DNA of 64,000 nt from assembly GCA_038249055.1 (NCBI GenBank), contig JBBRWS010000002.1:78118-142117 (forward strand). Direction: 5' to 3'. Source of the DNA: Minisyncoccia bacterium (GTDB lineage: Bacteria > Patescibacteriota > Minisyncoccia > Phycocordibacterales > UBA9973). Positions 3,231 through 35,203 of this stretch are shown here, in pieces (within the stretch, counting starts at the first letter, position 1; each line of letters starts with the position of its first letter). The notes below the pieces were generated by a model. It saw nothing but the letters and a program-made list of their open reading frames with translations, was not told the DNA's origin and searched no databases. Made by a program: the position numbers and the translations under genes.

Positions 3231-3358
3231 TAATGGATTATAACAGAAAAAGTGAGAGTAAGAATAGTGGGGGGTTATACATGATTGGAAATGTCGAAGG
3301 GACTTTCCGATTACATCGGCAGGTATTTTTCGGTCTCGTAAACTCGACATCGAAAAAT

Positions 3359-3375
3359 CTTTCAAGTCCCTTACG
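3359..3375 (+). repeat. Partial copy of tRNA-Asp T-arm/3' end (CTTTCAAGTCCCTTACG), in inverted orientation relative to the tRNA-Asp gene
   Basis: 14/16 match to GGTTCAAGTCCCTTCG of the tRNA at 3582-3655. Immediately followed (3376-3418) by the reverse complement of the 40-nt 'Y hairpin' also found at 13322-13362. Confidence 0.5.
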
Positions 3376-3485
3376 GAGCAAACCCAGTAGGTCATTTTAC
3401 TAAATGAGCAGTTTATGATGACTTGGTCACACATAATTTTCTGGTGAAAATTTGTGCTACCCCGACTCGGCTCGCCAGCCTCCGT

Positions 3486-3507
3486 CTTTCAAGTCCCTTC
3501 GACTGCC
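3486..3507 (+). repeat. Copy of tRNA-Asp 3' end (T-stem 3' strand plus acceptor: CTTTCAAGTCCCTTCGACTGCC), inverted relative to the gene
   Basis: 20/22 identical to the 3' terminal 22 nt of the tRNA-Asp sense sequence. Forms a 19-bp inverted repeat with 3583-3604 across a 75-nt spacer containing two hairpins. Confidence 0.6.
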
Positions 3508-3573: not shown

Positions 3574-3581
3574 TTTATTTG

Positions 3582-3655
3582 CGCAGTCGAAGGGACTTGA
3601 ACCCTCAACCTCCCACGTGACAGGCGGGTGCTCTAACCAGTTGAGCTACAACTGC
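3582..3655 (-). tRNA. tRNA-Asp (anticodon GTC)
   Basis: Minus-strand cloverleaf GCAGTTG/TAGCTCAACTGGTTAGAGCA/CCCGCCTGTCACGTGGG/…GGTTCAAGTCC/CTTCGACTGC+G. 7-bp acceptor with one G-U, TTCAAGT T-loop, anticodon loop CT-GTC-AC. CCA not encoded. Confidence 0.85.
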
Positions 3656-3885
3656 AAATTCTTTTTTAGAAACCTTCTTCCAGCTGCTGTTTTGAAATAA
3701 ACTTCACGAGAACGAGCTTCTTTTAAAGAAGGATATTCCTCCGTGTAAACAATTTTTAAGCCAGACATATTTTTTGTCGATTTAGTTTGTCCACTTTTAT
3801 GCTCACTGAAACGTCTGGCAAGATCATTAGTAAATCCTTTATAGAATTTTCCTTTATTATCTTGTAAAACGTAGACAATATACAT
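3646..3885 (-). CDS. GIY-YIG nuclease superfamily protein (UPF0213-like small stand-alone GIY-YIG)
   Basis: Begins MYIVYVLQDNKGKFYKGFTNDLARRFSEHKSG… (GIY…YKG, R, E, H, N motifs). The track ORF extends to 3987 but the family starts at the MYIVYV Met. Its 3' end overlaps the tRNA-Asp 5' end by about 10 nt. Confidence 0.7.
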   Translation of the reverse strand: MYIVYVLQDNKGKFYKGFTNDLARRFSEHKSGQTKSTKNMSGLKIVYTEEYPSLKEARSREVYFKTAAGRRFLKKNLQL

Positions 3886-3994
3886 AATTAGTTGAGCCCC
3901 GCCCGACTGAACGATGTAATCAGTCGTTCGGGCAGGTACAACTGTAAACACATTATTAAGATAACATAAAGTAGAATTTTTTTCCACTTTATTG

Positions 3995-4068: not shown

Positions 4069-4136
4069 ATTTACTAAAAACAAAATCGATTACTTCGGTT
4101 TTGTGGATACGCATTGGTATGTCACTTACCGAATTG

Positions 4137-4207
4137 TTGCGGGAGGTCGAATCGAACGACCGTCTTAAGGTTATGAGCCTTACGAGATACCATTTCTCTA
4201 TCCCGCG
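4137..4207 (-). tRNA. Initiator-type tRNA-fMet (anticodon CAT)
   Basis: Minus-strand CGCGGGA…TCCCGCA+A with the bacterial-initiator C1:A72 mismatch. A11:U24 in the D-stem, anticodon loop CTCATAA, T-loop TTCGATT. 71 nt, no CCA. Confidence 0.7.
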
Positions 4208-4235: not shown

Positions 4236-4312
4236 CTCAAATCTTAAGGTTATGAGATCTATTATTTTCTTGCGAGATACCATTTCTCTATCCCGCGATA
4301 TTTACTACTTTT
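4236..4312 (-). pseudogene. Tandem partial duplicate of the tRNA-fMet gene (5' two-thirds: acceptor, D-arm and anticodon arm, interrupted by ATCTATTATTTTCTTG; no T-arm)
   Basis: 4239-4290 repeats 4160-4210 (…TTAAGGTTATGAG…CGAGATACCATTTCTCTATCCCGCGATATT…). The following TACTACTT is also duplicated. No complete cloverleaf. Confidence 0.6.
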
Positions 4313-5600: not shown

Positions 5601-5681
5601 TTTTAGGGTATTATGTCAAAATGATACATAAGTGTTATTATGTTGTTAACTTAAATATTTTTTAAGGTTAAAAATAAAAAG

Positions 5682-8536: not shown

Positions 8537-9463
8537 CATATGTTTTTTATAAAAACCAAAAGAATAATAATTTCAGGCTGTCGTAATTTTAAGCGTAGTG
8601 GATTCACTTCATTCGCTAGTATTCTTATTATGACAGTGACTTTGTTTGTAATAACTTCTTTAATATTTATCCAAGCTGCATTAAACTCTTCTCTTAATGA
8701 TATAAAAGAAAAAGTTGATGTTACTGTATACTTTGTTTCAGATGCCGAAGAGTCAGCTATTAAAAACATTGAAGTGGCTCTTAAAAATCTACCTGAAGTT
8801 AAGAATATAACTTATACTTCTCAGGACCAGGCTTTAGTAGAATTTAAAGAGAGACATTCTAATGATTATTTAACGCTTCAAGCTCTTGATGAGTTAGATG
8901 AGAATCCATTAGGGGCATCTCTTAATGTTAAAGCAAGAGACCCTTCTCAATACGAAAGTATTTCTAAATATTTTGAAAGCGAAGATGCTCTTTCAAAAGG
9001 GGCTTTAACTATTATTGATAAAATAGATTATCATCAAAATAAAGTTGTAATTGATAGACTTACTTCAATTATTGCAGGTGCAAAAAAACTTGGTTTTGCA
9101 GTTTCTCTTATTCTCGTTATAATTTCGATTATAATTACATTTAGTACAATCAGACTTATTATTTATATGTCCCGTGAGGAAATAAATGTGATGAAGCTCG
9201 TTGGAGCAGGAGCCCGATATATCCGTGGTCCATTTATAGTTTCTGGAGTCTTGGTAGGTATTATATCTTCTATTGTCACAATTTTAATATTTATTCCTGT
9301 TTCAATTTGGCTAGGTAATCAGATGACTGATTTTGTTGGAATTAATTTATTCACATATTATAAAACTAATTTCTTACAGTTATTTATTATTATGCTTGGA
9401 TCGGGTGTAACTATTGGAAGTATTTCCAGTATTTTCGCTATTCATAGATATTTACGAAAGTAA
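8537..9463 (+). CDS. ftsX: Cell-division permease FtsX
   Basis: Follows ftsE by 4 nt. Four-TM FtsX topology with a large periplasmic loop. C-terminal …MKLVGAGARYIRGPFIVSGVLVG… typical of FtsX. Confidence 0.75.
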   Translation, partial: HMFFIKTKRIIISGCRNFKRSGFTSFASILIMTVTLFVITSLIFIQAALNSSLNDIKEKVDVTVYFVSDAEESAIKNIEVALKNLPEVKNITYTSQDQALVEFKERHSNDYLTLQALDELDENPLGASLNVKARDPSQYESISKYFESEDALSKGALTIIDKIDYHQNKVVIDRLTSIIAGAKKLGFAVSLILVIISIIITFSTIRLIIYMSREEINVMKLVGAGARYIRGPFIVSGVLVGIISSIVTILIFIPVSIWLGNQMTDFVGINLFTYYKTNFLQLFIIMLGSGVTIGSISSIFAIHRYLRK

Positions 9464-11156: not shown

Positions 11157-11165
11157 AATAAAAAA

Positions 11166-11300
11166 ATAGCCCAGTAGGTCAATCTACTGATTGAAGGTTG
11201 GACGTCTACGGGAGACGTCCATTAGAGGTCCAACCTCTATCTGGCTTCGGAGGTTGTACCTCTATAAAAATACCTCCTCGATTTTTAGAGAAGGTATTTT
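11166..11300. terminator. Structured GC-rich convergent-terminator region between pyrG (+) and the LOG-family gene (-)
   Basis: Hairpins CAGTAGGTCAATCTACTG; nested AGGTTGGAC-GTCTACGGGAGAC-GTCCAACCT; GGAGGTTGTACCTC; AAAATACCTCCTCGATTTTTAGAGAAGGTATTTTT. Contains the recurring CCCAGTAGGTC motif. Confidence 0.4.
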
Positions 11301-12145: not shown

Positions 12146-12216
12146 TGCGGGATCGTCTAATGGTAGGACTACAGTTTCTGGAACTGTGTATCTAGGTTCG
12201 AATCCTAGTCCCGCAG
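12146..12216 (+). tRNA. tRNA-Gln (anticodon CTG)
   Basis: TGCGGGA/TC/GTCT-AATGGTA-GGAC/T/ACAGT-TTCTGGA-ACTGT/GTAT/CTAGG-TTCGAAT-CCTAG/TCCCGCA+G. U1:A72 pair typical of bacterial tRNA-Gln. Confidence 0.8.
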
Positions 12217-12273
12217 CAAAAAAATAAAAGCGTAGCGTTTTTTGCTGCGGGACGAAAGCAAACTACTTTGCTT

Positions 12274-12456
12274 GCGTCTACGATTAGTAAATCGAACCGT
12301 GAGGAGGATTCGAAGACCTTTTCCGTGTGAGTGCGTCCACGAACGGAAAAGGTGTACAGAACCAGCGAATGAGTACATTCGCCTACTGGGTAGGGTTCGA
12401 AAAGTGCGAATGAGTACATTCGCCTACTGGGTACTCACGGTCCTAGTCCCGCAGCA
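12274..12456 (+). repeat. Structured repeat X (copy 1) ending in a direct copy of the tRNA-Gln 3' end (TCCTAGTCCCGCAGCA at 12441-12456)
   Basis: About 99% identical to 13369-13510 apart from an internal 42-nt duplication (GCGAATGAGTACATTCGCCTACTGGGTA occurs twice). Contains hairpins CCTTTTCCGT…ACGGAAAAGG and GCGAATG-AGTA-CATTCGC. Confidence 0.7.
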
Positions 12457-12505
12457 AATTTGACATAAAAGCAATTATATTGTTTATATATGCTATGATA
12501 TAGAT

Positions 12506-13216
12506 ATGAATAAAAATAAACTTGTTATAGCATTTTTTGTGTTAGTTATTGTTTTGGGATTCGGGGTGTACTACTTTTCTTCTAAGGATAAAACCATTCC
12601 ACCAGGCGAGGATATAAATTCTCCTTTGGTTTCTTCTGTGGTTTATAAAAATAATGATTACGGATTTAACTTTTCTTTACCTGCTAATTGGCAAGGATAT
12701 TCAATTGTGAGTAATACATGGGAAGGGATGTCTTTAACTACTTCCACGATAGTCGAAACTGGGCCAAAACTTCTAATACGGGATCCAAAATGGACAGTAA
12801 CTTCACCTCATGAAGATCTACCAATATTGGTTTTTACAATTCAGCAATGGAATTCATATCTAGCAGAGAATTTCTCCATTGGTGCCGCACCAATTAAAGC
12901 AAGTGAATTAGCACGTAATAATACTTACGTCTTCGCTCTTCCAACACGTTGGGATTTTGATTATAGTCTAGGCTTCAAAGAAGCACAGGATATTATTGCA
13001 GGAAATCCTATCCGTACATTCGATTTAGTAATAGTCGATAAACCACAAGGTAAGTTAAATATAAACGTCATATGTGAGCAGGCAATATCATACATGAAAT
13101 TTACAGATGCAAAAAGCGCAGATTTGTTTATTGCTGACTGTAAAGAAGGAAAACACCCCGAAGTAATAGAAAAATATAAAGCAGATATGAATCTTGGTGA
13201 TGGTGTTGCAATTTAA
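12506..13216 (+). CDS. Hypothetical secreted/membrane-anchored protein (N-terminal signal/TM)
   Basis: 236 aa with hydrophobic N-terminus (LVIAFFVLVIVLGFGVYYF). No recognisable catalytic motif. Confidence 0.5.
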   Translation: MNKNKLVIAFFVLVIVLGFGVYYFSSKDKTIPPGEDINSPLVSSVVYKNNDYGFNFSLPANWQGYSIVSNTWEGMSLTTSTIVETGPKLLIRDPKWTVTSPHEDLPILVFTIQQWNSYLAENFSIGAAPIKASELARNNTYVFALPTRWDFDYSLGFKEAQDIIAGNPIRTFDLVIVDKPQGKLNINVICEQAISYMKFTDAKSADLFIADCKEGKHPEVIEKYKADMNLGDGVAI

Positions 13217-13368
13217 TAGTAAAGAATAAATCAACAAGCTCAGACTTGTTTAGTTTTTTCTAAATAAGTTCCAACATCTACCCAGACCGCCGCAAATAAG
13301 CTAAGGCTTATTTGCGGCGGGAAGCGAGCAAACTGCTCATTTAATAAAATGACCTACTGGGTTTGCTC

Positions 13369-13510
13369 GCGTCTACGATTAGTAAATCGAACCGTGAGGA
13401 GGATTCGAAGACCTTTTCCGTGTGAGTGCGTCCACGAACGGAAAAGGTGTACTGAACCAGCGAATGAGTACATTCGCCTACTGGGTACTCACGGTCCTAG
13501 TCCCACAGCA
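13369..13510 (+). repeat. Structured repeat X' (copy 2) ending in a second direct copy of the tRNA-Gln 3' end (TCCTAGTCCCACAGCA at 13495-13510)
   Basis: Near-identical to repeat X (2 substitutions, lacks the 42-nt internal duplication). Preceded by a 15-bp perfect hairpin (CCGCCGCAAATAAGC…GCTTATTTGCGGCGG) and the Y hairpin at 13322-13362. Confidence 0.7.
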
Positions 13511-13592
13511 GTTTAGTATCGATGGACCTAGAGGGGTTAGGGACTGAGTCTCGAAATTTCTATATCAATGTTTATATGCTAAAATACCTAAT

Positions 13593-14123: not shown

Positions 14124-14306
14124 AGATAGGATTCTGTTATAATAAATTTATGAACATGTTTAAATCACTGAAGATCTAAAATTCATGGTAAATAAGTACT
14201 CGGAGTTCTCAGCCCTAATAAATCTTATTTTCCGTTAAAAATGTTCCAACATCGACCCAAACTCTCAGAAAGTTATTTTCAAATATTACCGTGATATAAT
14301 ATATAC

Positions 14307-34807: not shown

Positions 34808-34933
34808 GCGATTCCGCTTATCGTCCGAACTTTTGTTTTCAAAAGTTTTAGGAAATAATTTAATTATTTTAAATAAAAGCCCTCAATTGAGGGCTTTTAT
34901 TTTTTGTCTGATTATACATGTTATAATATAAAT

Positions 34934-35203
34934 ATGTATTTTATTTATATTTTAGAGTGCTCAGATAAAAGTCTTTATACCGGATCCACAAATGATCTAG
35001 AAAAAAGACTCCATAAGCACAACAATTTAAAATCCGGAGCGCATTATACTAAAATACGCCGACCCGTAGTTCTAAAATATTCAGAAGAATTTGATACTTT
35101 AAAAGAAGCTAGGAGAAGAGAGGCCGAACTTAAAAGGTGGAGCAGAATTAAAAAATTAAATTTGATATCAATGTGTTTAGATGATAATGACATAAAAGAT
35201 TAG
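34934..35203 (+). CDS. GIY-YIG nuclease superfamily protein (second copy of the small stand-alone type)
   Basis: MYFIYILECSDKSLYTGSTNDLEKRLHKHNN…; homologous to the protein at 3646-3885. Confidence 0.7.
   Translation: MYFIYILECSDKSLYTGSTNDLEKRLHKHNNLKSGAHYTKIRRPVVLKYSEEFDTLKEARRREAELKRWSRIKKLNLISMCLDDNDIKD

Follow-up and report, generated by a model that had tools for sequence, protein, structure and literature searches.

Direct repeats that reach the 3' end of a transfer RNA (tRNA) gene, like the targeting of transfer-messenger RNA (tmRNA) genes, are typical of tyrosine-integrase sites. Here we describe a 64,000-nucleotide (nt) stretch of DNA from a Minisyncoccia bacterium (assembly GCA_038249055.1, contig JBBRWS010000002.1, positions 78,118 to 142,117 of the forward strand), hereafter the window, in which an intact tRNA-Gln(CTG) gene is followed by two repeats, X and X', that both close with a copy of the 3' end of that gene. 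A first-pass annotation had read this arrangement as the classic scar of site-specific integration. Judged from sequence comparisons, X and X' stand in tandem and belong to a lineage-wide Paceibacteria/Patescibacteria family of small, protein-less, structured modules at tRNA and tmRNA 3' ends; the family is apparently undescribed so far, and our literature search found no description of such elements. Our preferred reading, to which we give a probability of roughly 0.55, is that each unit is a mobile or recombining element that is non-autonomous, targets tRNA 3' ends specifically and acts as a folded single strand.

Several described systems resemble the units in part. With tyrosine-integrase elements at tRNA and tmRNA genes they share an intact tRNA, a direct repeat of the tRNA 3' segment, the tmRNA target, tandem arrays and small cargo, but they differ in having no integrase (either adjacent or in about 2 Mb of sampled loci), in measuring 100-300 bp, in bearing reverse-complement copies of the target and covarying hairpins, and in being absent from phage, plasmid and viral collections. 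Like integron attC sites and the CTX-phi attP(+) hairpin, they are imperfect palindromes with arms that rebuild a target-site duplex below a structured variable top, and they can be seen as gene-plus-site units in tandem that would be served by a recombinase in trans. Unlike those sites, they show no RYYYAAC/GTTRRRY core, no dif-like core and no link to IntI or Xer; their arms are 15-21 nt long and their "core" varies with each tRNA. The ends of X, TGCGGGA ... TCCCGCA, are likewise tRNA-dependent, with no GTTRRRY at the 3' boundary.

REP, BIME and REPIN repeats and similar miniature inverted-repeat transposable elements (MITEs), associated with RAYT or IS200/IS605-type HUH enzymes, are also short, geneless, multi-copy hairpins behind genes, with compensatory stem changes, modular shuffling and, presumably, a single unlinked enzyme acting on single-stranded DNA. 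In contrast, the units lie strictly at tRNA and tmRNA 3' ends and on the tRNA strand, their ends are copied from the neighbouring gene, and no RAYT-like or TnpA-like open reading frame (ORF) was found in a search of limited sensitivity. The terminal inverted repeats that a MITE would have (here A1 and S2, defined below) differ from tRNA to tRNA, and the flanking repeat is 15-19 nt of tRNA rather than a fixed short duplication.

Among RNAs, the tRNA-like domain of tmRNA, viral 3' tRNA-like structures, mascRNA and YrlA share with the units acceptor-on-T-stem helices and a 3' strand that runs to the discriminator. The units differ from these in carrying the exact sequence of the adjacent tRNA, in replacing the T-loop with a 60-150-nt insert, in lacking D and anticodon arms, and in failing to match the Rfam tRNA and tmRNA models; the acceptor and T helices are rebuilt in their folds, but the 5' strand (A1) pairs also with the discriminator, the CCA and the trailer. 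Finally, the bridge (seeker) RNAs of the IS110 family and the guide/cleavage-site pairing of IS608 offer a structured non-coding edge segment and target matches in both polarities, but the units have no DEDD/serine recombinase or Y1 transposase, and their matched stretches are much longer and pair with each other.

Anatomy of the units in the window

The 3' end of tRNA-Gln (TCCTAGTCCCGCAGCA, at 12203) recurs exactly at 12441 and with one mismatch at 13495, in line with the two direct copies first reported. At up to three mismatches it occurs three times, against 0.06 expected from shuffles; GCGAATGAGTACATTCGC likewise occurs three times (0.01 expected) and CCTACTGGGT seven times at up to one mismatch (0.84 expected). 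The repeats are thus non-random and tied to the tRNA, as the first-pass annotation had it. X and X' are about 210 nt long and align at 98% identity over 126 nt (12267-12392 with 13362-13487) and again over 51 nt (12406-12456 with 13460-13510), which bears out their near-identity; the additional module in X relative to X' measures 41 nt and not, as had been given, 42. The repeated module and the long hairpin of X (CCTTTTCCGT...ACGGAAAAGG) are present in the sequence, while the starts first assigned to the units (12274 and 13369) proved too far downstream: X already opens near 12238 and X' near 13287, and the first part of either is the reverse complement of an acceptor 3' strand. Relative to shuffled controls, both fold stably (X, -97.1 kcal/mol, z = -7.8; X', -76.1 kcal/mol, z = -4.3).

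The final segment of X, S2, spans the T-stem 3' strand, the acceptor 3' strand, the discriminator and three trailer nucleotides of tRNA-Gln. At the other edge, the left arm of a 16-bp palindrome is formed by the acceptor 3' strand and trailer of the tRNA itself, and the right arm includes A1 (TGCGGGA, 12246-12252). The palindrome at the 5' edge of X' is its counterpart, but with another acceptor-like sequence (CCGCCGC/GCGGCGG), and family members away from tRNAs open with the same kind of acceptor-strand remnant. Segment A2 of X has the form CCGTGAG-GAGG-ATTCGAA, which is also that of units behind tRNA-Ser(TGA) in two other loci (L124 and L182). X looks recombinant, because its A1 and S2 fit tRNA-Gln while its A2 retains a tRNA-Ser-type T stem. 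No canonical terminator lies between tRNA-Gln and X. As first noted, the segment 12457-13510 holds one gene for a predicted secreted or membrane-anchored protein, of 236 amino acids (aa), and no integrase; the protein matches no Pfam family, and an exact look-up in the public collection returned no record of it.

CCTACTGGGT is also found 190 nt behind tRNA-Asp on the minus strand, where a third unit folds at -98 kcal/mol (z = -8.2). Its GCAGTCGAAGGGACTTGAA is antisense to the T-loop, T-stem and acceptor 3' strand of tRNA-Asp. The ends of the family therefore match whichever tRNA adjoins. A covariance model (R1, below) recovered all three units and nothing else in the window; in X' it matched twice, at 13387-13480 (26.4 bits) and 13320-13386 (19.2 bits).

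Table 1. Coordinates of the units and their parts (window positions, except in the last row, which gives positions in other loci).
Feature	Position	Strand	Evidence or remark
tRNA-Gln(CTG), intact	12146-12217	+	ARAGORN; Rfam tRNA model, 59.6 bits
S1, repeat copy formed by the last 16-18 nt of tRNA-Gln	12203-12220	+	
Palindrome GTCCCGCAGCAAAAAA / TTTTTTGCTGCGGGAC	12208-12223 / 12238-12253	+	Perfect, 16 bp, 14-nt loop
Element X	12238-12458	+	Fold; family-pattern match at 12258-12351; covariance model R1, 28.2 bits, E = 0.0014
X, order of parts: A1, P2, P3, A2-like, P5, two modules, CTCACGG, S2		+	
X, hairpin P2	12256-12273	+	Loop CUAC
X, hairpin P3	12281-12294	+	CGATT-AGTA-AATCG
X, A2-like segment CCGTGAGGAGGATTCGAA	12297-12314	+	
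X, long hairpin P5	12316-12353	+	
X, two hairpin+CCTACTGGGT modules	12365-12392, 12406-12433	+	
X, CTCACGG	12434-12440	+	
X, S2	12441-12458	+	Exact 18-nt copy of the tRNA-Gln 3' end
Cargo gene, 236 aa, sole gene between X and X'	12506-13216	+	N-terminal hydrophobic segment; predicted secreted or membrane-anchored
Element X'	13287-13512	+	Alignment with X; fold; covariance model R1
X', 5'-edge palindrome CCGCCGCAAATAAGC / GCTTATTTGCGGCGG	13287-13320	+	Alignment with X
X', hairpin P2'	13324-13332 paired with 13362-13370	+	Holds an inserted hairpin+CCTACTGGGT module, 13338-13362
X', hairpin P3'	13376-13389	+	
X', A2'	13392-13409	+	
X', hairpin P5'	13411-13448	+	
X', single module	13460-13486	+	
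X', S2'	13495-13512	+	One G-to-A change
Third unit, behind tRNA-Asp (3581-3655, -)	3293-3506	-	Fold; covariance model R1, 58 bits, E = 1.8e-10
tRNA-Asp unit, A1+A2 as one antisense GCAGTCGAAGGGACTTGAA	3488-3506	-	19 nt, perfect
tRNA-Asp unit, additional "class 3" domain		-	
tRNA-Asp unit, P2 with inserted module as in X'	3376-3414	-	38/39 identical to part of X'
tRNA-Asp unit, second antisense AAGGGACTTGAA	3361-3372	-	12 nt
tRNA-Asp unit, P5 and P6		-	
tRNA-Asp unit, S2 AAGTCCCTTCGAC	3293-3305	-	13-nt sense copy of the tRNA-Asp 3' part
tmRNA followed by a unit whose ends match the tmRNA 3' end	L112 1471-1864; L184 22-408; L114 10211-10594		

A family at tRNA and tmRNA 3' ends

A pattern drawn from four independent members (GCAAACTNCTTTGC-N18-48-TTTTC-N10-40-GAAAAG) found at least 120 loci in a metagenome scan; the counts in this paragraph are among the matches listed, about 12 of which are chance matches. 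A same-strand tRNA lies upstream of 83 of the 112 evaluable hits, at a median of 44 nt, with more than 30 different anticodons represented, and three more units follow tmRNA genes. Most of the remaining hits follow a 5-10-nt acceptor-strand remnant and a terminator, as X' does. In all, roughly four-fifths of the genuine hits adjoin a tRNA or tmRNA, so that family copies are mostly tied to such genes, and the integration hypothesis survives this one of the refutation tests set for it. An exact tRNA-end copy of at least 9 nt closes 61 of the 83 tRNA-associated units, and the distance from the end of the tRNA to the end of its copy has a median of 153 nt.

The orientation of these copies is one-sided. 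Sense copies of tRNA ends number 56 downstream and 3 upstream, and antisense copies 51 downstream and 2 upstream; the strand of a tRNA-associated unit is always that of its tRNA. The consensus unit, about 100-300 nt long and mostly without a gene, runs 5' to 3' through a trailer/terminator hairpin, A1, P2, A2, a core and S2. A1 is the reverse complement of the acceptor 3' strand, and A2 that of the T-stem 3' strand and T-loop; the conserved core reads GAAAGAC-P5-(G)UACCUG-P6; and S2 repeats the final 15-19 nt of the adjoining tRNA, starting at -15, -18 or -19 from its end and usually reaching that end. The match is to the individual gene: A2 agrees at 10.8 of 12 positions with its own tRNA and at 8.1 of 12 with others, and it matches the variable T-loop dinucleotide in 67 of 78 units. 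The tRNA end, trailer, terminator and A1 together make uninterrupted palindromes of up to 30 bp, which start exactly at the acceptor 3' strand and take in the discriminator, the trailer and, where it is gene-encoded, the CCA. A hairpin and T-run terminator stands ahead of 30 of 78 units, and those behind terminators have no promoter-like site of their own; 11 units with short spacers have neither terminator nor A1.

Distribution in related genomes

A PyrG-based search of species-representative genomes gave 80 loci, all from Paceibacteria, Nomurabacteria or Parcubacteria metagenome-assembled genomes. Behind 20 of 168 evaluable tRNAs stands an exact copy, at least 10 nt long, of the tRNA's own 3' end, in most cases with an antisense copy of the T-loop and of the 3' strand of the T-stem ahead of it. 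Two of these (L006 and L019) look like adjacent tRNA genes, which leaves units at 18 of 168 tRNAs (about 11%). By type, own-end copies follow 6 of 20 tRNA-Asp, 6 of 41 tRNA-Gln(CTG), 5 of 30 tRNA-Thr(GGT), 2 of 36 tRNA-Met and none of 37 tRNA-Thr(CGT) genes.

Presence and absence are polymorphic even at corresponding genes, and the locus varies among relatives, where invariance had been named as a refuting observation. In L002, with a PyrG 85% identical, both tRNA-Asp and tRNA-Gln are without a unit, and the gene after tRNA-Asp starts 3 nt away as against about 360 nt in the window; in L003, each of the two tRNAs has a single, different unit, and tRNA-Thr has an internally deleted one. Conversely, tRNA-Thr(GGT) has no unit in the window but has one in L002 and in L029, where the tRNA is identical. 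The units also form tandem arrays and decay: in L099 a whole unit is perfectly duplicated in tandem, and 24 of 76 units have an S2 whose acceptor part is degraded. At L033 (14591-16554), a 1.96-kb insertion behind tRNA-Gln(CTG) has a Fic/DOC gene as its sole gene and a family-like module at its end. An insertion process, as the first-pass annotation envisaged, fits both the tandem units and the cargo-carrying one.

Two further long insertions follow tRNA-Gln(CTG) and end at a second copy of the tRNA end, at L055 (12054-13424) and at L062 (11876-17772); the latter is 5.9 kb long and has housekeeping-like genes inside. In L180 (about 9240-9330), after the first unit, a different palindromic repeat, CAGCCACAGGTCGGACCTGTGGCTG, in several copies, replaces the 5' part of the second tandem unit.

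Folding and covariation

Compensatory change is abundant in hairpins P2, P5 and P6 of an 87-sequence alignment, in which 94.8% of cells are paired, compared with 78.4% for shuffled controls. Covariation scores 0.421, as against 0.121 when shuffled; none of 500 shuffles reached 0.421, and slid controls gave at most 0.086. Conservation extends to unpaired parts, namely the P2 loop CUGC, GAAAGAC, (G)UACCUG and the P6 loops UGUAA and CGUAG, and the "class 3" domain contains an invariant G-T wobble. A covariance model built from this alignment returned 14 matches at E < 0.01, 11 of them 0-350 nt behind a same-strand tRNA. The repeats of X had been likened to arm-type protein-binding sites, a view that the evidence does not back; the hairpins covary like a structured single strand. 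At the orthologous tRNA-Ser(TGA)-ruvX loci (RuvX 71-84% identical), a unit is present in every case and compensatory changes preserve its hairpins.

Strong covariation, with conserved loops and junctions, is what one would expect of a functional RNA, and we hold that explanation to be the main rival, unlikely though far from negligible. The units would then be tRNA-like non-coding RNAs or 3'-trailer structures made by read-through from the tRNA promoter, with an A1/A2:S2 helix that mimics the acceptor/T minihelix and so is processed by RNase P, RNase Z or the CCA-adding enzyme; in a variant, A would switch between the real tRNA end and S2, the match being kept by selection or by local gene conversion. 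Read-through agrees with the constant tRNA strand, with the units that sit between two tRNAs of an operon without a terminator (L018 and L003), with the 11 short-spacer units and with the lack of a canonical terminator ahead of X, but not with the 30 of 78 units that lie behind a terminator and have no promoter-like site of their own. Mimicry of a minihelix would explain why tmRNA has units too, the minihelix being the sole feature common to tmRNA and tRNAs, whereas the pairing of A1 with the discriminator, trailer and encoded CCA takes up what a tRNA mimic should leave free. The invariant wobble of the class 3 domain and the units kept at tRNA-Ser loci also speak for a function. Against one stand the presence of units at only about 11% of the tRNAs examined in related loci, close relatives without them, the frequent degradation of the acceptor part of S2, and internal deletion derivatives and perfect tandem duplicates that resemble selfish DNA. 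No Rfam family matches either: at Rfam 15 gathering thresholds, only tRNA, tmRNA and rRNA were matched in the window and 21 loci, and between 12000 and 13700 a search up to E = 10 returned noise only.

Recombinases, carriers and local rearrangement

The first-pass annotation proposed decayed elements or integrase-less satellites mobilised in trans. On such an account, which we now find improbable, the repeats would be attL/attR-type scars of decayed tandem islands or prophages, or of satellites moved in trans, with X as the arm of an attP. Direct repeats that begin in the T-loop or T-stem and extend as far as the 3' end, the additional targeting of tmRNA, the existence of tandem arrays and 1-2-kb cargo insertions bounded by tRNA-end copies (at X' in the window and with the Fic gene of L033) are all in keeping with it. 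However, no integrase was found among the window ORFs, and no recombinase cluster among the recurrent neighbour genes of units at more than 100 loci. In the window and about 200 related loci (about 2 Mb), a search for XerD-like or IS608 TnpA-like ORFs gave none, a weak negative because its sensitivity is limited. Viral contigs, 2.9 million in all, gave no match to the family pattern, X by blastn had none in 50,697 phage records or 72,556 plasmids, and an exact 20-mer of the shared module had none in genome or viral collections. The account would also require one enzyme to accept upwards of 30 distinct core sequences, and integrase models predict neither reverse-complement copies matched to the adjacent tRNA nor compensatory covariation of hairpins. 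Decayed prophages or islands fail as an explanation because most units are geneless and only 100-300 bp, far too small.

The geometry of the units, with S1, A and S2 in direct, inverted and direct order, hairpins at the junctions and perfect palindromic arms, could also arise locally, through a tandem-inversion duplication in which snap-back or template switching takes place at the hairpins of the terminator and the T arm. X' would then be a segmental duplicate homogenised by gene conversion, and a conversion tract would fit the fact that X and X' are 98% identical yet X' has another acceptor-like strand in its 5' part. As a full explanation this is very improbable and largely refuted by family-wide conservation: more than 100 independent loci, with over 30 tRNA types among them, have the same conserved P2 and core, core-less direct-inverted-direct triplications were searched for and none was found, and covariation shows that the structure is selected. 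Local rearrangement may nevertheless be the route by which units come by tRNA-matched ends.

Other candidates were tried and rejected. The recurrent neighbours YraN, MiaA and RuvX, which could be taken for linked nuclease genes, recur because gene order around particular tRNAs is conserved. A role as regulatory leader of the downstream gene is ruled out because the orientation of that gene is unbiased: 41 such genes share the strand of the unit and 31 do not. The introns described for Patescibacteria tRNAs lie in the anticodon loop (PMC13011429); a group I intron is set aside, given intact tRNAs and the lack of a match to any intron model. A retroviral-type primer-binding site was dismissed since the antisense copy matches the gene trailer and not the mature CCA end. 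A single viral match to a 17-mer of the shared module, in a coding region, is due to chance.

Proposed mode of action

On the reading we favour, that of a non-autonomous element acting as a folded single strand, a tRNA or tmRNA gene would gain a unit at its 3'-terminal segment while the tRNA stays intact. The active form would be the folded strand, either single-stranded DNA or RNA, in which A1 and A2 pair with S2 and so rebuild the acceptor and T helices of the tRNA concerned, with the core on top; in an alternative pairing, A1 and A2 can join the real tRNA end, through the terminator. The chemistry might be supplied by an unlinked host factor, for which general tRNA- or hairpin-handling enzymes that recognise the tRNA-like shape are candidates, or by hairpin-primed template switching. 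The direct repeat of the tRNA end would thus be a built-in part of the unit and not the footprint of a lost integrase-carrying island. Selfish behaviour at the DNA level is suggested by the palindromes, the terminators ahead of units, degraded S2 segments, the tandem duplicate and the modules shuffled between units. A bolder proposal, which we advance tentatively and rate at somewhat less than an even chance, is that the units form a new class of protein-less element specific for tRNA and tmRNA genes, a folded replica of the target's acceptor/T arm with templated sense and antisense copies, and with a mode of spread that has yet to be described.

Several points weigh against a mobile element. 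Comparisons between species suggest that the units move, and the argument is confined to that level because no mobilising enzyme, excised form or within-population pair of empty and filled sites was observed. A mobile element would also need a way to gain ends that fit each of more than 30 different tRNAs. The conserved unpaired motifs and the invariant wobble of the class 3 domain suit a functional RNA, and retention at the tRNA-Ser(TGA)-ruvX loci could equally reflect long-term selection for a host function. RNA, single-stranded DNA and cruciform DNA are not told apart by the wobble pairs, because a stricter test counts 18 G-U against 14 A-C, an earlier, looser count having favoured the sense strand.

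Other features of the window and related loci

The small modules of the units occur elsewhere too. In the 3' region of a LOG-family gene (11160-11300, minus strand), a P6-like hairpin, GGACGTCT-CCCGTAG-ACGTCC, is accompanied by a second hairpin and then a T-run; the second hairpin ends in CCTACTGGGC, the small module common to X, X' and the tRNA-Asp unit. These mini-hairpin modules appear to move independently. A conserved sequence, (A)AATAGGTTC[T/G]A[A/G]C..., stands ahead of units in seven loci (L118, L119, L122, L135, L150, L175 and L192), in L119 about 600 nt upstream of the 16S rRNA gene; it is neither a tRNA nor a member of an Rfam family.

ORFs of 73 aa (12242-12463, +) and 55 aa (13349-13516, +) traverse X and X', respectively. 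They are very unlikely to be genes, and they have a peptide in common because the underlying DNA is repeated. Past X, a motif, GTTCCAACATC[T/G]ACCCA[G/A]AC, lies between successive genes for small secreted proteins, at 13267-13287 and 14243-14262, with similar copies at about 15056 and 15190.

Fragments of tRNA 5' ends were observed as well. Approximately the first 43 nt of tRNA-Met (4136-4207) are repeated upstream of the intact gene with an 11-nt insert (4240-4300, minus strand), and a similar 5' fragment of tRNA-Asp lies upstream of that gene (5601-5675) in L003. A 14-nt match to tRNA-Met at 27.5 kb falls inside an HD-domain gene and was discarded as chance. Small GIY-YIG genes (PF01541) of about 80-113 aa abut tRNA genes in the window (3646-3987, minus strand, and 34904-35203, plus strand), in L002 (12553-12942 and 13100-13345) and in L018 (91-330), and of 15 homologues in the loci, 9 have a tRNA no more than 170 nt away. 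One of the window genes has a stop codon that overlaps the start of tRNA-Asp. These genes may encode free-standing homing-type nucleases that target tRNA loci.

Significance

Patescibacteria have tiny genomes with few recognised mobile elements, and an environmental abundance of at least 120 loci from one narrow pattern is notable in such genomes. If the units are mobile, any tRNA gene could be targeted without an element-encoded recombinase, and they would account for tRNA-end repeats that are otherwise scored as the scars of dead prophages. If they are instead RNAs, they would amount to companion RNAs, one for each tRNA, that have so far gone unnoticed in the reduced Patescibacteria genomes, and would add an unknown partner to the tRNA biology of a major uncultured lineage. 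Either way, the annotation of tRNA loci, genomic islands and "att sites" in these genomes is affected.

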